From: Escherichia phage vB_EcoP_YF01
DNA: 64,000 nt
Reading direction: 5' to 3' (one strand)
Sequence record: OQ025076.1
The position numbers were made by a program, and so were the translations under genes. Below are positions 26,170-36,780 of this stretch, piece by piece. The notes under the pieces are model-generated. The model worked only from the letters and a program-made list of their open reading frames with translations, did not search any database and had not been told where the DNA came from. The first letter of the stretch is position 1. The number at the start of each line of letters is the position of its first letter.

Positions 26170-28014
26170 TTAGTGTGTATGCATCCAGTTAAGTCCAATC
26201 TGACAATCAGATGCCAGAGGACATTCCATATTCAGATACTCGCCAGCTTTCTTAACACAAAGCTCGGTGTGCTCTTTGAGTTTCTGTACATCATTACGGT
26301 TTACTGAGAATTGACCTTCATCGTGCATATCAATTACCTTAGCACAACGAACCTTATCTTTCTCAATCCACTTGTTAAGGAACATCATAGCATATTTCAT
26401 AACAACAGCACCAGCACATTGCAGGAGTGTGTTAAGGGCTTTATGAACCATAACCTTACCAGTGGCATCCCGTCTCATTGTAATCTTACGACCATCAACT
26501 CCAATCAAGTATCCTTGAGCAGCTTTCTCTGTCATACGATCAATGAGGATTGCAATACATGGGTTCTCTGCTAAGAAACGTGCTCTCATCACTGAACCTT
26601 CGTCAGCCCCACCACCTACAATTGAACCAAGCTTAGCATCGCCAGCACCGTAGTTGAATGCATAGATAAACGTTTTAGCGTTGTCACGAGTAGGAAGACC
26701 AGCAAGTTTCTGGTTGTGGGAGTGGATATCACCTTCAAGGAGAATATCACGATACATAATAGCAGAAGCTAAACCACGTTCTGCCAGAGCTTTCTTAGCT
26801 GGGTTGTTCTCTTCAATTGCCTCAGCAAGCATATCCCTACACTCTTTAATGAGGTAGTGAGCGAGCATACGAAGTTCAAGTCCAGAACCATCATACCCTA
26901 AGAATACTTCTTTACCAGCAGGTATGTAATATTTGTAAGCGCCTACAGGTTTGTCTTTCTTCCCAGGCTTACCTTTCTCGTAAATTACGTTAGTACCTTT
27001 TCGTATATAACAACCATCAGGAACAACGTTAGTAATAACGAAAGGACGAGAGTGATCACTGTCTGAGTTATAGTCAGACTCAAACAAACTGCGACACTCG
27101 TGACCAAACAGACCACGGGAGGGAATATTAACCACGATACGATGTTTGAATCGAAAAGTCGGCGTAGCGCAGCTGTTAGCTTCTGCCGAAAGTTTACCAT
27201 CTTCGCGTTCCTTTGCTATGAGTCCACTGATAAGACCTAGCCTGTGAGCCGCTACAACGCGTCTCTTAAGCAAACTTCCGACACTCCCTAGCTCACCCCC
27301 TAACCCTTCTTCAAGAGTCTCCTCGAGGTTTGTAGGAGCTGTAGGCCACTTGTTTGATGTGGCTAGTGCTTTCTTAATCTCATCAAACGTTACAGGATTA
27401 CGGCGATTAGGGTTCAACCCCAAACCAAATACGTAAGCCTTCATGTAATTCTTAGTCTTAAACCTGAAATGCTTTTCTAAGAACTTCTTAATATCAGCGT
27501 CAACCATCTCGGCTGTCTGCTTCTGCTTAGCATTGCCTCGCATCCAAGCAGTATACCATGCTTGGTATGTTCCATACTTTCTCATATCTTTCTTAATTTC
27601 GAAAGTATTCCAAGGCTTCTTAGATACGTTAAACTCTGGAGGAAGAAAGCCCTCATCCATAAGAGCTTCTTTAACTCGTGCATCTTTCGATGGGTCAAAG
27701 TCTACGTATTCGACACAGGTGAAAGCTCCACCAATATCTTCTCTCTTCAGCCCAACCCTATCACAATAGGCTTGAGGCCACTTCTGTAAAGCTCCAGACT
27801 TTTTAAATGGCTTCATGTAAGTAGAGCCATCTAATCTCATCTTAGGTAAGAGAGGAATCAACTCTCTGTCAATATTAACAATAATCTCTTTAAGGAGGTG
27901 AACATACCACCGAGCATTTCTTCGGTTGAAACTCACTCCGTGCTTTGCTTGCTTAGAGATTATATCAGCGACAGTCATCTCTGTCAAAAATGGAAGAGCG
28001 TCCGGGTTGCTCAC
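26170..28014 (-). CDS. DNA polymerase, family A, polymerase domain only (no exonuclease domain)
   Basis: Motif A LGYDGSGLELRMLAHY, motif B RDNAKTFIYAFNYGAG, motif C VIDMHDEGQF; GTG start with AAGGAG SD. Confidence 0.85.
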   Translation of the reverse strand: MSNPDALPFLTEMTVADIISKQAKHGVSFNRRNARWYVHLLKEIIVNIDRELIPLLPKMRLDGSTYMKPFKKSGALQKWPQAYCDRVGLKREDIGGAFTCVEYVDFDPSKDARVKEALMDEGFLPPEFNVSKKPWNTFEIKKDMRKYGTYQAWYTAWMRGNAKQKQTAEMVDADIKKFLEKHFRFKTKNYMKAYVFGLGLNPNRRNPVTFDEIKKALATSNKWPTAPTNLEETLEEGLGGELGSVGSLLKRRVVAAHRLGLISGLIAKEREDGKLSAEANSCATPTFRFKHRIVVNIPSRGLFGHECRSLFESDYNSDSDHSRPFVITNVVPDGCYIRKGTNVIYEKGKPGKKDKPVGAYKYYIPAGKEVFLGYDGSGLELRMLAHYLIKECRDMLAEAIEENNPAKKALAERGLASAIMYRDILLEGDIHSHNQKLAGLPTRDNAKTFIYAFNYGAGDAKLGSIVGGGADEGSVMRARFLAENPCIAILIDRMTEKAAQGYLIGVDGRKITMRRDATGKVMVHKALNTLLQCAGAVVMKYAMMFLNKWIEKDKVRCAKVIDMHDEGQFSVNRNDVQKLKEHTELCVKKAGEYLNMECPLASDCQIGLNWMHTH

Positions 28015-28030
28015 TTTATACTCCTTTAAA

Positions 28031-28453
28031 TTATTGGTAAAGTAAATCTGTAAATGCTTGGTTATCTTCTACTACATTCAACATGGTAGCTTCATCACTA
28101 TAAGCCCTAACCGTCCCGTTGACAACTGTCCAAGGAGGAGGTGGAGGTGGTGTATGGTTAGCCCTAGCTTCACGAGGTTGCTCTCGTACTAAATGAGCCA
28201 CAACCCTTTGGTTAGCGACTTCTTCTCTTTCTCTAATAGCTCTCTGGATGTAGGCCAGCTTCATGCCCCAAGCTTCTTCAAACTCTTGAGGGTGCTTATC
28301 ACTGATAACCACATACTGACGTTCAGGAATACCAGAGCGAATCTCTGATAATAATTCATGGAACAAATCTAGTTCGTGCTCAGTGAGATTCATTTCAATA
28401 TCATCCCACTTTAGAACTAGGAAACGGTTTTGGTGTCTAGCTGGTAATGGCAT
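28031..28453 (-). CDS. Hypothetical protein (poly-Pro segment)
   Basis: ORF in track; PPPPPP run; no recognised catalytic motif. Confidence 0.45.
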   Translation of the reverse strand: MPLPARHQNRFLVLKWDDIEMNLTEHELDLFHELLSEIRSGIPERQYVVISDKHPQEFEEAWGMKLAYIQRAIREREEVANQRVVAHLVREQPREARANHTPPPPPPWTVVNGTVRAYSDEATMLNVVEDNQAFTDLLYQ

Positions 28454-28456
28454 AAC

Positions 28457-28741
28457 TCAACCTCTTGGGAATGGCATCAAAAATTCCACAGCAGATTTAA
28501 TTTCATTATTGATTCTTGAATCACGATAAGAGATAAACTTACCTTTGCTATCACGTAACATCACATTAGTTCTGGCTGTTTTGTGAGGTAGTAATGTGAC
28601 ACTAGTTGGAATAGCATCAATCCCTACAGCGTATTTGTCAATAGTCTTACTTTCAGCCAACAGATAAGACCAAGTACGCGGTTTCTGCTCCGGGCGGTTA
28701 GGGTAGGTGTCCCGAATCTGAACCATAGCTAACTTATTCAT
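28457..28741 (-). CDS. Small protein, tandem paralog A
   Basis: Shares C-terminal pattern TARTNVMLRDSKGKFISY...PFP with 28743-28997. Confidence 0.45.
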   Translation of the reverse strand: MNKLAMVQIRDTYPNRPEQKPRTWSYLLAESKTIDKYAVGIDAIPTSVTLLPHKTARTNVMLRDSKGKFISYRDSRINNEIKSAVEFLMPFPRG

Positions 28742-34898: not shown

Positions 34899-34907
34899 TC
34901 TTATTCC

Positions 34908-36221
34908 TTAGTTATTTGTTTCTACGTCAAAAGAGATTCCACGACCCGCTTCATCAGCAAACCGAACTGTACGGGTTTGAGGTTCTAATACTTCAGGGTT
35001 GTTGGTAACAAATCGATCAGCGAGACTATCTACCACATCTTGGGCCACACCTTCATCAGTCCACACAGCCCTAACAGGTGCGTTGATATCACCAACAGCA
35101 AAACCCTGACCAGAGAACTGACGTGCGCTAACAGTTAAGCCATTTGGTCGACCACGAGAGGGTCTAGCCATCCATCGCTCCATAGAATCACTTGTAATAC
35201 CGAGAGCTTCTTCAAAAGATGTTCTACGAGTAGGGCTTACTCTTCGTGACTCCTGTGCTCTACGCATTGCAGGGGCTACAAACACCCCTTCAATTGCATT
35301 GTGTCGGTTAGGTTCCTCTTCTCGACCAAGCAGATCACCACCCGTGTTAGTCGTTAAATTTGTCAACCCTTCAGACCAATACGCATGAATCTGGCTAGAG
35401 CCATGTGTGCTTGACATTAACTGAATCTCTTCATAAGGGATTCCAAAGAATCGACTCATGTCACGGTCAACACAATACTGAGCACTTGTTGTATCCTCAA
35501 TAAGAGCAACCTGACCTCGTTCGTTGACCAGATGGTTAACTGGTTGAGGTGTAGGAAGGTATCGAGTTTGGGCCATGTATTGATGTGCAACTGCTGGAGA
35601 GGAAAACCTCAATACCTGAGAGTTAGGCCATTTCTTGTGAACATACCTGATTTCACGACTAGAAACAACCACTGGACAAGGGGCGGTCATAGCCAAATAT
35701 CCGTGAGAGGTCATGAATAATTTGTCAAGAGTCATCGCACCACGACACATCATAGGAAAATTATCCAATACCTCTTCAATAGAAGTAGGATAGTTAAACA
35801 TGAATTGGATACGAACCCCATTCCACTGAAACTCAATAATATCAGTGAATGTTAGTTGAGAAGTCCCAGTATACGGCTCATCTGTAGATTCAGCAAGAAG
35901 GGATGCATATTCAATATCTTGTGACTCTAGCCATTCCTTCACATTACTTTCAATCTCTCTTCCAAGAGCTTGCCAACGATCAGTTGGGACGAAAGTATTT
36001 TGAGTTCTTGGTGTTTGTCCTCTGACAATAAAGATATCAATGTCATGTGGAGCTGTGTTATTAAGCACAGCATCACGAACAGCCCCACCAGTAATGATGG
36101 GACAGATACCGTCTGGAACTAAATTGTTGTTAATCAACTGTTCAATGAAGTGACGACCAACAGTGATATCAGGTTGTTGAGCAACCTTATCTTCAATTTG
36201 GTTAATCGGGATAACAATCAT
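34908..36221 (-). CDS. Nucleotidyltransferase (Pol-beta/CCA-adding-enzyme-like head) fused to a ~350-aa uncharacterised domain
   Basis: N-terminal motif ITGGAVRDAVLNNTAPHDIDIFI matches the GG-x-RD...D-x-D signature of class-II tRNA nucleotidyltransferase/poly(A) polymerase heads; ATG 36221. Confidence 0.55.
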   Translation of the reverse strand: MIVIPINQIEDKVAQQPDITVGRHFIEQLINNNLVPDGICPIITGGAVRDAVLNNTAPHDIDIFIVRGQTPRTQNTFVPTDRWQALGREIESNVKEWLESQDIEYASLLAESTDEPYTGTSQLTFTDIIEFQWNGVRIQFMFNYPTSIEEVLDNFPMMCRGAMTLDKLFMTSHGYLAMTAPCPVVVSSREIRYVHKKWPNSQVLRFSSPAVAHQYMAQTRYLPTPQPVNHLVNERGQVALIEDTTSAQYCVDRDMSRFFGIPYEEIQLMSSTHGSSQIHAYWSEGLTNLTTNTGGDLLGREEEPNRHNAIEGVFVAPAMRRAQESRRVSPTRRTSFEEALGITSDSMERWMARPSRGRPNGLTVSARQFSGQGFAVGDINAPVRAVWTDEGVAQDVVDSLADRFVTNNPEVLEPQTRTVRFADEAGRGISFDVETNN

Positions 36222-36222
36222 T

Positions 36223-36780
36223 TTACATTTTCCAATATAATGAAGGTGGGTCGTAAGGGTCAAATCCCGTGAGTTCACACAAGAAAAGATAAACCTTAAC
36301 AGTTAAGTTAACGTCCTGTTCACAATAAGTAAACATATCCTCAGTGAAAGCATCCCATGCTTCCTCTTGCTCACCGTAGTCACCTTTAAGTTCCTCTAAG
36401 AACTCACCCCATTGCTTCAAGCCGTGACCTCTTGGGCCACGCCTAGGGTCGCCTTTCGGATACTCAGGACTGTCACCAATACGGTCAGGTTTAAGATATC
36501 GACTAAGACATAAAGTGTCAAAGACGTTAAAATTATATTTAATCAAAGAGGGATACATCTTTTTCAGAGCAGGTAAGTCAAAGTCAATAATATTATGACC
36601 CACTAGTACATCTGCTTCTGTAAGTTTACGAATCCCATCTTCAATTTGGTGAGGCCGATAGCCCCACCTTTCACCAGTTTCAACATCGAAGATATAGATA
36701 CACCATACTTTAGTTATGTCATCGTACAGTGCATTACTCTCGATATCGAATGCAAATACTTTCTTCTTTTTCTTTACCAC
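36223..36780 (-). CDS. 3'-5' exonuclease (DnaQ-like, stand-alone proofreading subunit)
   Basis: Exo I FDIES, Exo [10 protein letters not shown], Exo III YCEQD; GTG start with GGAG SD overlapping primase stop. Confidence 0.75.

Follow-up and report, generated by a model that had tools for sequence, protein, structure and literature searches.

The 64,000-nt stretch of DNA analysed here (hereafter the window) is from the genome of a Kuravirus, a phiEco32-like podophage of E. coli. It carries a T7-type DNA polymerase gene and, 8.2 kb away (8,208 bp from exonuclease stop to polymerase start), a separate gene for the matching proofreading exonuclease, with a thioredoxin gene between them (Table 1). 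The first-pass annotation had described these parts and their spacing correctly, but its view of the arrangement as unusual does not hold: the split is already published and annotated as a hallmark of the phiEco32-like (Kuravirus) coliphages and their relatives, and is therefore ordinary. For phiEco32 it has been on record since 2008, according to citing papers and RefSeq notes (Savalia et al., 2008; NC_010324). It has also been reported for phiEco32 together with the LUZ24 group (PMC3517423) and described as a feature of every Kuravirus-group phage (PMC9965538); Kuravirus, 7-11, Privateer, LAh_6 and the LUZ24-like phages all have it. We consider it very likely that the two genes belong to a phiEco32-like replication module in which an ancestral T7-gp5-type gene was cut at its linker and the products reassemble as a heterodimer.

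The polymerase ORF carries motifs A, B and C and lacks Exo I–III, as had been read from the sequence beforehand. Pfam recognised DNA_pol_A only (residues 361–611, E 2.5e-23), and neither Pfam, nor alignment with T7 gp5, nor the predicted structure revealed an exonuclease domain or a remnant of one in the ORF. Translation begins at a GTG codon, with an AGGAG ending 6 nt upstream, and the protein is 99.8% identical to phiEco32 gp53 (phi32_53), which RefSeq labels "DNA polymerase; lacks 5'-3' and 3'-5' exonuclease domains". A phmmer search against the PDB returned T7 gp5 (E 1e-32), and all of the top 27 Foldseek matches to the AF2 model (pLDDT 91.7) were T7 gp5.

Exo I–III are found in the separate 185-aa ORF, where Pfam DNA_pol_A_exo1 scored well above its cut-off (34.7 bits against 23.6, E 2e-8); like the other Pfam E-values for the features first described, this is far beyond chance expectation. 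Its phiEco32 homologue, gp74, is entered in RefSeq as "DNA polymerase exonuclease subunit". Residues 3–178 of T7 gp5 were the only sequence matches in the PDB (E 1e-11), and T7 gp5 also filled the top 27 places of the fold search with the AF2 model (pLDDT 94.2), its exonuclease domain being the best match (TMq up to 0.72). By both searches the protein is of the T7 gp5 type and not an RNase T or oligoribonuclease; RNase T, rejected as a candidate, appeared only at rank 50 by fold, with 13% identity. The phiEco32 counterpart of a second ORF, a candidate separate 5'-3' exonuclease, is phi32_33, annotated as 'exonuclease; similar to exonuclease domain of DNA polymerase I'.

Upstream lies the primase-helicase gene (RefSeq homologue phi32_75), whose product has 11 Asp/Glu versus 3 Lys/Arg in its last 45 residues and ends in ...ASPW. 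The first-pass annotation had the exonuclease translationally coupled to this gene; the 7-nt overlap behind that proposal is present, occurs likewise in gp24/gp25 of LUZ24, and makes the coupling itself plausible.

Table 1. Features of the split polymerase module and its surroundings (window coordinates).
Feature	Position	Strand	Details	Basis
Exonuclease-less T7-type family A DNA polymerase	26170..28014	-	614 aa; thumb, palm, fingers	phiEco32 gp53 homologue
Motif A	26869..26895	-	YDGSGLELR, aa 374-382; D375 = T7 D475	alignment with T7 gp5
Motif B	26647..26688	-	RDNAKTFIYAFNYG, aa 443-456; R443, K447, Y451 = T7 R518, K522, Y526	alignment with T7 gp5
Motif C	26311..26328	-	MHDEGQ, aa 563-568; D565/E566 = T7 D654/E655	alignment with T7 gp5
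Thumb-tip insertion	27697..27843	-	aa 58-106; at position of T7 thioredoxin-binding domain	MAFFT and HMMER alignments with T7 gp5
Cargo region, exonuclease to polymerase	28015..36222	-	8.2 kb	ORFs, Pfam, phiEco32 comparison
Phage thioredoxin	32265..32540	-	91 aa; CAPC at aa 12-15; directly upstream of thyX	Pfam Thioredoxin, E 4.4e-13
Stand-alone DEDDy 3'-5' proofreading exonuclease (predicted)	36223..36780	-	185 aa; equivalent to T7 gp5 residues 1 to ~205	phiEco32 gp74 homologue
Exo I	36736..36750	-	FDIES, aa 11-15; D12, E14 = T7 D5, E7; invariant in 51 homologues	alignment
Exo II	36574..36597	-	HNIIDFDL, aa 62-69; D68 = T7 D65; H62, N63, D68 invariant	alignment
Exo III	36313..36327	-	YCEQD, aa 152-156; Y152, D156 = T7 YNVQD motif, D174; D156 invariant	alignment
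Overlap of primase-helicase stop and exonuclease GTG start	36774..36780	-	7 nt, GTGGTAA	sequence
T7 gp4-like primase-helicase	36774..38564	-	596 aa; acidic C-terminal tail, terminal Trp	Pfam DnaB_C and Toprim_2
Candidate separate 5'-3' exonuclease (T7 gp6-like)	17901..18743	-	phiEco32 gp33 counterpart	weak Pfam 5_3_exonuc_N, E 6.8e-6, below gathering score

Joined together, the exonuclease and polymerase align with T7 gp5 end to end (35.5% identity over 614 aligned columns), and T7 gp5 is the best match of each part both by sequence and by fold. The C-terminus of the one and the N-terminus of the other abut on the T7 sequence with no loss or overlap, the junction falling at T7 residues ~205–211 in the linker that joins the exonuclease domain to the thumb, so that the polymerase starts at about T7 residue 210. 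All catalytic residues of Exo I–III and motifs A, B and C are kept, including the motif B tyrosine, as is the C-terminal His; the primase-helicase, with its acidic tail and aromatic end, is likewise T7-like. T7 gp5 differs in being one polypeptide with a 76-aa thioredoxin-binding domain that employs host thioredoxin, whereas the polymerase of the window has extra insertions in the thumb (~90 aa), ahead of motif A (~40 aa) and between motifs A and B (~28 aa).

The separation extends across the homologues. Each of the 65 exonuclease homologues found is a stand-alone protein (101–247 aa, mostly 160–200), and none of the 65 aligned polymerase homologues (488–618 aa, identity down to ~35%) has an exonuclease domain on record. 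Several exonuclease and polymerase clusters have identical longest-contig sizes (81643, 88363, 100903, 86560, 86289 and 28562), which suggests that both genes lie on the same contigs. The polymerase homologue search also returned a small number of fused forms and some shorter fragments. Close relatives with an unsplit gene, 597–618 aa in size, exist as well; on one 45-kb contig such a gene comes after that of a primase-helicase, from which a single ligase-like gene separates it. In LUZ24, 7-11, phiEco32 and LAh_6 alike, the primase-helicase gene is followed by the exonuclease, a variable gap and the polymerase, the gaps measuring 2.3, 6.7, 8.0 and 9.6 kb, respectively. Because only 63 of the 200 neighbour-joining bootstraps recovered the split clade as monophyletic, this gene order suggests a single ancient fission but does not prove it.

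Among deposited genomes the region is ~94–97% identical to the window at the nucleotide level, with no exact copy. phiEco32 has essentially the same genes (gp53 and gp74), the same primase-helicase/exonuclease overlap, the same thioredoxin and the same order (primase-helicase, exonuclease, nucleotidyltransferase, dCTP deaminase ... thioredoxin, ThyX ... PhoH ... polymerase). The gap of the window holds a nucleotidyltransferase, dCTP deaminase, Dps-like protein, thioredoxin, ThyX, an ORF with a LigA domain Ia, PhoH, an HNH endonuclease and small ORFs; the HNH endonuclease ORF (29077–29571) is extra, neither phiEco32 nor Bas91 having one listed there. Proteomics of the Kuravirus SU10 showed both the polymerase and the thioredoxin to be expressed (PMC4281155).

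The LUZ24-like Pseudomonas phages (Bruynoghevirus) resemble the window in having a separate exonuclease (gp25) that overlaps the end of the primase-helicase gene, an exonuclease-less polymerase (gp34/gp36) downstream, and an upstream block of amidoligase, glutamine amidotransferase, RimK-like and gamma-glutamyl cyclotransferase genes. Their polymerases are 39–42% identical to that of the window with a thumb loop of equal length, but are shorter (545 aa), lacking part of the thumb insertion as well as the 28 aa inserted between motifs A and B; that of LUZ24 is itself interrupted, and the short gap contains small ORFs. The split in S-SBP1-like cyanophages, which are T7-like, is a second type, described in 2023, that also falls between the proofreading and polymerase domains of a family A polymerase (Czernecki et al., 2023, PMC10201439). 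There the thioredoxin-binding region is ~30 aa shorter and the products are predicted to reassemble, the AlphaFold2 complex of both superposing on an intact polymerase (PMC10201439). Unlike in the window, where ~20 genes intervene and several genera share the layout, the cyanophage genes are adjacent and were separated by a recent 1-nt frameshift.

That the split is an artefact of assembly error, of a sequencing frameshift or of a removed intron or intein yielding one polypeptide is extremely improbable. Introns and homing endonucleases do occur in the polymerase gene of related phages (e.g., LUZ24 gp34/gp36), and in some Kuraviruses the polymerase match comes in two pieces. However, the ~20 genes separating exonuclease from polymerase are independent, conserved and functional, the arrangement is identical in 61 deposited genomes (each covering at least 80% of the region) and recurs in distant genera, and each of the two genes has a start codon of its own, preceded within a few bases by a Shine-Dalgarno-like GGAG or AGGAG. 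There is also little chance that the exonuclease works alone, in host DNA degradation, recombination or primer processing, leaving a polymerase devoid of proofreading. Such a role would suit the distance between the genes and an association that is deduced rather than observed; stand-alone DEDD nucleases are common, and ~34 short stand-alone proteins were among the best 150 matches to the exonuclease profile. Against it stand the restriction of PDB sequence relatives to T7 gp5 proofreading domains, the exact abutment of the two ends, and the co-occurrence of both genes across relatives from ~33% to 100% identity. Moreover, work cited in PMC10201439 indicates that family A polymerases need their exonuclease domain for stability, and a complex is predicted for the analogous S-SBP1 pair (PMC10201439).

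Whether the thioredoxin belongs to this assembly is a separate matter. T7 gp5 uses host thioredoxin, whose cysteines are not needed for T7 processivity; T7 genetics places cis-Pro76 and Gly92 of thioredoxin on the surface that binds gp5, and a Gly74-to-Asp change blocks T7. The CAPC protein of the window, recognised as a thioredoxin from the outset, is 33% identical to residues 24–107 of E. coli TrxA and lacks the N-terminal strand and helix of TrxA. The invariant residues of its family are C12, P14, C15, P56 and G73. In the phage collection it occurs in the Kuravirus/7-11/Privateer/GAP52 group only. A partnership with the polymerase, as the first-pass annotation implied, would make it a dedicated processivity factor clamping the thumb-tip loop in the manner of TrxA on T7 gp5, a hypothesis published in 2021 for phage Privateer (PMC7881722).

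We regard this role as unlikely, the evidence being equivocal to negative. The polymerase insertion does lie exactly where T7 has its thioredoxin-binding domain, and pairwise alignments pair the basic FKKPKNK stretch of T7 with MKPFKKS of the phage and T7 E319 with a Glu; the family profile, though, is unsupportive upstream of T7 320, being significant only at T7 320–375, the C-terminal edge of that domain. The thioredoxin keeps cis-Pro76 and Gly92 but has Ser at the Gly74 position. It is kept in all C3-morphotype relatives, and its unusual active-site surroundings (WCGPC to QCAPC, D26 to K) suggest specialisation. On the other hand, the loop is ~49 aa versus 76 in T7, and the stretch P57–F98 measures 39–44 aa in all 65 polymerase family members, including fused relatives and the LUZ24-like phages, in which no thioredoxin homologue was found at E ≤ 1e-5. 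LAh_6 has the same polymerase insertions, and no thioredoxin homologue was found in the 32-kb segment of it that was examined or by searching the phage collection. The invariance of both cysteines in the thioredoxin family points to redox use, and the gene lies among those of dNTP metabolism, adjoining thyX. For cyanophage Syn5, experiments and AF3 modelling favour action of the phage thioredoxin via redox rather than via the polymerase (bioRxiv 10.1101/2025.10.05.680603), and AlphaFold2 predicted no thioredoxin complex for the split S-SBP1 polymerases (PMC10201439).

Returning to the heterodimer, we found no literature report of co-purification of the exonuclease and polymerase or of proofreading by the pair, the 2008 phiEco32 paper being represented by citations and RefSeq notes. 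Polymerase and proofreading activities reside on separate subunits in E. coli DNA polymerase III (alpha-epsilon) and in family D polymerases (DP1/DP2). By analogy (PMC10201439), a DEDD exonuclease subunit could sit non-covalently on its polymerase here too, although those polymerase families are unrelated and the exonuclease of the window is of the Pol A/T7 rather than the DnaQ type. An ancestral T7-gp5-type gene would have been cut between proofreading domain and thumb, with the small product retaining a complete DEDDy active site and a gene directly after that of the primase-helicase, as in the ancestral T7 order. The large product would have retained thumb, palm and fingers, encoded downstream of a gap that came to hold accessory genes and genes of nucleotide metabolism. 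Most likely, the two proteins come together again, non-covalently, as an equivalent of T7 gp5, in which the small subunit would proofread and the large subunit polymerise alongside the gp4-like primase-helicase. For the thioredoxin encoded in the gap, redox support of dNTP supply is a more probable role than that of a dedicated processivity factor, which would make the phage independent of host trxA.

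All genes from about 17.9 kb to 64 kb of the window lie on the minus strand. The 11 kb from 26000 to 37000 share 94-97% nucleotide identity with deposited Kuraviruses, 61 records cover at least 80% of that region, and the polymerase ORF has 99.8% identity to its counterpart in phiEco32 and in dozens of further Kuravirus genomes. Taken together, these identities assign the window, on sequence grounds, to a phiEco32-like E. coli podophage (Gordonclarkvirinae, Kuravirus); no record identical to the window was found in the phage collection.

Features of the replication region and its surroundings, with nucleotide positions in the window or residue positions (aa) in the polymerase
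Feature	Position	Strand	Length	Details
Candidate 5'-3' exonuclease	17901-18743	-		Weak Pfam match; phiEco32 gp33 annotation
Further HNH_3 ORF	23451-23933	-
Polymerase	26170-28014	-	614 aa	GTG start; AGGAG ends 6 nt upstream
Polymerase motif A	aa 374-382			YDGSGLELR
Polymerase motif B	aa 443-456			RDNAKTFIYAFNYG
Polymerase motif C	aa 563-568			MHDEGQ
Sigma-70 consensus	27959-27987	-		TTGACA, 17 nt, TATAAT, upstream TG
Small paralogous ORF	28457-28741	-	94 aa
Small paralogous ORF	28743-28997	-	84 aa
HNH_3 endonuclease ORF	29077-29571	-	164 aa	E 1.8e-11
Ligase domain Ia ORF	30851-31180	-	109 aa	Pfam PF22745, E 8e-35
Phage thioredoxin	32265-32540	-	91 aa	CAPC; Pfam Thioredoxin E 4.4e-13
Three adjoining small ORFs	33749-34364		65-69 aa	Each ends in -Y(Y)
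Nucleotidyltransferase	34908-36221	-	~437 aa	Directly after the exonuclease gene
Exonuclease	36223-36780	-	185 aa	YCEQD among its Exo motifs
Block upstream of primase-helicase	38784-48871	-

The polymerase matches Pfam DNA_pol_A over residues 361-611 (E 2.5e-23), and no Pfam match to an exonuclease family was obtained in this ORF. Its motifs A, B and C lie where the first-pass annotation had placed them, and their key residues (D375; R443, K447 and Y451; H564-D565-E566) are invariant in 65 polymerase homologues. In T7 gp5 the equivalent of D375 is D475, and those of R443, K447 and Y451 are R518, K522 and Y526; D565/E566 of motif C and the C-terminal His of T7 gp5 are both kept. The polymerase sequence FIYAFNYG pairs with T7 FIYGFLYG, with Y451 at the position of T7 Y526, and a tyrosine at that place in motif B is a criterion for the T7-like cluster 5 of family A (PMC10201439). 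A phmmer search against all PDB sequences returned T7 gp5 as the best match (E 1e-32), strong over T7 496-704 and with weaker stretches back to T7 ~295. An AlphaFold2 model built from the family alignment (pLDDT 91.7) starts with a thumb helix, and its 27 best Foldseek matches in the PDB are all T7 gp5 chains (E down to 1.6e-26). The protein belongs with the T7-like DNA polymerases of family A (Czernecki cluster 5) and lacks the in-chain exonuclease, like the published split subset.

The N-terminal 3'-5' exonuclease domain is not in the polymerase chain, whose N-terminus pairs with T7 residue ~210; the domain is found on the separate ORF. A cryptic or remnant exonuclease domain at the N-terminus of the polymerase was excluded, as three insertions, in thumb, palm and fingers, explain the extra length of the protein. 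Relative to T7 200-704, ~90 aa are added in the thumb (at about aa 135-269), ~40 aa ahead of motif A and ~28 aa between motif A and motif B.

Two further observations concern the polymerase gene. A perfect (12/12) sigma-70 consensus lies within codons 10-19, in the sense direction, where ~0.005 exact matches would be expected in a 14-kb scan; phiEco32 and Bas91 have the identical sequence, and in phages 7-11 and LAh_6 it is not conserved. In the Kuraviruses FH3 (OR886155), 1-6af (OR983333) and 1-6bf (OR983334) the polymerase match falls into two pieces over ~2.4 kb, annotated as three 'hypothetical protein' features, and polymerase fragments of 449-457 aa are present in metagenomes. The split polymerase gene is presumably further interrupted there by an intron or homing endonuclease, like LUZ24 gp34/gp36.

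The exonuclease scored 34.7 bits against Pfam DNA_pol_A_exo1, for which the gathering cut-off is 23.6. It carries three Exo motifs, D12/E14 (DxE), N63...D68 (Nx2-3[F/Y]D) and Y152...D156 (Yx3D), and D12, E14, H62, N63, D68 and D156 are invariant among 51 homologues. D12 and E14 of Exo I correspond to D5 and E7 of T7 gp5, D68 of Exo II corresponds to D65, and Y152 and D156 of Exo III are kept. T7 gp5 (residues 3-178) was the only match among all PDB sequences (E 1e-11). The AlphaFold2 model, again from the family alignment, reached a pLDDT of 94.2, and its 27 best Foldseek matches in the PDB were T7 gp5 chains (E 6e-11, 26-30% identity). We therefore excluded RNase T, oligoribonuclease and DnaQ as identities for the small ORF: its sequence matches T7 gp5 only, and RNase T is distant in fold (rank 50, E 7.5e-5, 13% identity). 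Both outcomes that the first-pass annotation had named as refuting its reading, Exo motifs inside the polymerase ORF and an RNase T-like small ORF, are thereby excluded. The gene is predicted to encode a Pol A-type proofreading 3'-5' exonuclease of the DEDDy class (PF01612).

When 1.84 billion representatives were searched with a profile of the exonuclease family, 1,243 matches were obtained at E<=1e-30. Among the best 150 of these, ~34 were at most 250 aa long and ~80 at least 550 aa; stand-alone T7-type proofreading proteins are therefore common, with the reservation that some of the short matches may be truncated gene calls. A candidate 5'-3' exonuclease is encoded elsewhere in the window, and in T7 this activity is likewise on a separate protein (gp6).

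When the exonuclease and polymerase were joined end to end, they could be aligned with the whole of T7 gp5; 218 of the 614 aligned columns are identical (35.5%). The end of the one and the start of the other abut at T7 ~205-211, the linker from the proofreading domain to the thumb. The sequence evidence shows an enzyme of the T7 gp5 type divided neatly at the linker of two domains; both halves are under purifying selection and inherited together. The outline drawn in the first-pass annotation, a polymerase lacking exonuclease motifs and a separate proofreading ORF about 8 kb away with a thioredoxin gene between them, is thus borne out; the distance from exonuclease stop to polymerase start is 8,208 bp.

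The two halves most probably come together again as a heterodimer corresponding to T7 gp5, in which the small subunit would proofread. For a comparable split in S-SBP1-like cyanophages, an AlphaFold2 complex of both products superposes on an intact relative (PMC10201439). The GTG start of the exonuclease overlaps the primase-helicase stop codon by 7 nt (GTGGTAA), an overlap by which the exonuclease may be translationally coupled to the primase-helicase. The C-terminal tail of the primase-helicase is acidic, with 11 Asp/Glu among the final 45 residues and a terminal Trp, and through it the protein may touch the polymerase; T7 gp4 has an acidic tail with a terminal Phe. The basic stretch FKKPKNK of the T7 thioredoxin-binding region pairs with MKPFKKS of the polymerase in pairwise alignments, a pairing that the family profile does not support.

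Exonuclease and polymerase are separate ORFs in phiEco32, Bas91, LUZ24, LAh_6 and 7-11, and the exonuclease gene comes directly after that of the primase-helicase, save for one small ORF between them in 7-11 and LAh_6. The common module order is amidoligase/glutamine amidotransferase/ATP-grasp/gamma-glutamyl cyclotransferase, primase-helicase, exonuclease, a variable gap, and polymerase. The gap measures 2.3 kb in LUZ24, 6.7 kb in 7-11, 8.0 kb in phiEco32, 8.2 kb in the window and 9.6 kb in LAh_6. Its cargo differs from phage to phage: in the window it includes a nucleotidyltransferase, dCTP deaminase, Dps-like protein, thioredoxin, ThyX, PhoH and HNH endonuclease, and in LAh_6 it includes anaerobic ribonucleotide reductase genes.

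All 65 exonuclease homologues detectable in public protein data are stand-alone. The 65 aligned polymerase homologues (down to ~35% identity) are all 488-618 aa long and have no recorded exonuclease domain; the search also returned shorter fragments and a few fused forms outside this aligned set. The longest contigs of several exonuclease and polymerase clusters are equal in size, which suggests that these clusters lie on the same contigs. Relatives with a fused gene (597-618 aa) share ~43% identity over the common part, and their thumb loop is equally short. In one case, on a 45-kb contig, the gene lies downstream of the primase-helicase with one ligase-like gene in between, a gene order near the ancestral T7 order. 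In a rough neighbour-joining tree the fused clade is sister to the split clade, and the split clade was monophyletic in only 63 of 200 bootstraps. A single ancient fission of the polymerase gene is therefore suggested by gene order rather than demonstrated.

In the phage thioredoxin the CAPC lies at aa 12-15, and a cis-proline loop (SIPA) contains P56. It shares 33% identity with residues 24-107 of E. coli TrxA and starts at the equivalent of TrxA ~23, without the N-terminal strand and helix. QCAPC replaces the canonical active site WCGPC, and W28, D26 and G74 of TrxA are replaced by Tyr, Lys and Ser, respectively, while cis-Pro76 and Gly92 are kept. Within the phage collection the protein occurs in 120 records, all in the Kuravirus/7-11/Privateer/GAP52 group. 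The large protein database yielded only 15 clusters, in all of which C12, P14, C15, P56 and G73 are kept.

One role that might be considered for this protein is that of a T7-type processivity factor on the polymerase thumb loop; a T7-like coupling of thioredoxin and polymerase was proposed in 2021 for Privateer and its C3-morphotype relatives (PMC7881722). An insertion of ~49 aa in the polymerase sits exactly at the T7 thioredoxin-binding position, and the thioredoxin is conserved across the whole group. However, this thumb-tip loop is shorter than that of T7 gp5 (~49 aa vs 76), and in this region the polymerase family profile aligns significantly with T7 320-375 only, at the C-terminal edge. 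Several comparisons also speak against the idea. The P57-F98 stretch is 39-44 aa long in every family member, fused relatives included, and falls in the same range in LUZ24-like phages, where searches found no such thioredoxin. In LAh_6 the search gave no thioredoxin homologue, yet its polymerase has all the Kuravirus-type insertions, among them the one of 28 aa between motif A and motif B that marks the Kuravirus/7-11 lineage, whose members do carry the thioredoxin. Thumb-loop length is the same with or without the thioredoxin, and no signal of co-variation emerged between carriage of the thioredoxin gene and features of the polymerase loop. Within cluster 5, only ~29% have a thioredoxin-binding insertion of 50 aa or more at the tip of the thumb (PMC10201439).

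The redox cysteines of the phage thioredoxin are invariant, its gene is placed among dNTP-supply genes, and the Syn5 thioredoxin, the best-studied in phages, appears to act in redox reactions and not on the polymerase (bioRxiv 10.1101/2025.10.05.680603). A processivity role is unlikely. A redox role, such as feeding the host ribonucleotide reductase, would be the more likely of the two. Less likely again is that the truncated QCAPC thioredoxin docks on the short thumb-tip loop to form a three-protein replicase (exonuclease, polymerase and thioredoxin) for which host trxA is not needed. E. coli without trxA is resistant to T7; a literature search on dependence of Kuraviruses on host trxA found nothing.

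Several other genes in and around the gap are worth recording. The HNH_3 endonuclease ORF in the gap, absent from the annotation at that place in phiEco32 and Bas91, is probably a mobile homing endonuclease; a further HNH_3 ORF lies outside the gap. The N-terminal part of the nucleotidyltransferase resembles the head domain of poly(A) polymerases and CCA-adding enzymes, with a weak Pfam match just under the gathering score (E 2.5e-4), and its long C-terminal half gave no match. The ORF consisting only of the N-terminal domain Ia of NAD-dependent DNA ligase has a counterpart labelled 'DNA ligase' in phiEco32, although 109 aa is far too short for a ligase; possible roles are an action on host LigA or the binding of NAD+. 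The two small paralogues adjoin one another and are 55% identical across their C-terminal 40 residues (E 2e-15). Among the three adjoining ORFs ending in -Y(Y), the one pair compared (33749-33958 and 34167-34364) showed no significant similarity (E 0.06). The block upstream of the primase-helicase contains a gamma-glutamyl cyclotransferase (Pfam GGACT), a glutamine amidotransferase (Pfam GATase) and neighbouring ORFs, one of which has a phiEco32 counterpart annotated as an ATP-grasp/RimK-like ligase and no Pfam match in the window. The same block stands ahead of the replication genes in LUZ24, 7-11 and LAh_6.

The first-pass annotation had called the arrangement unusual, a description that did not hold: papers and annotation already document it as the signature of phiEco32-like phages and their wider relatives. 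In the phiEco32 RefSeq record, phi32_53 carries the label "DNA polymerase; lacks 5'-3' and 3'-5' exonuclease domains", phi32_74 is the exonuclease subunit of the DNA polymerase, phi32_75 the primase/helicase and phi32_65 the thioredoxin; the annotation of BASEL phage Bas91 agrees. PMC3517423 reports the split for phiEco32 and the LUZ24 group, and PMC9965538 describes it as shared by every phage of the Kuravirus group. The split is thus known from RefSeq annotation and several papers from 2008 to 2023, and the thioredoxin idea has been published as well. A naturally split T7-type polymerase could be of use in engineering, with fidelity tunable by omitting one subunit. The 2023 reclassification of the family A polymerases (PMC10201439) presents exonuclease/polymerase fission in S-SBP1-like cyanophages as the first case in that family, and no mention of the phiEco32/LUZ24-type split was found in its accessible text. 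The latter is much older and wider than the cyanophage fission, its halves lie 2-10 kb apart, and the gap between them is a landing site for cargo genes.
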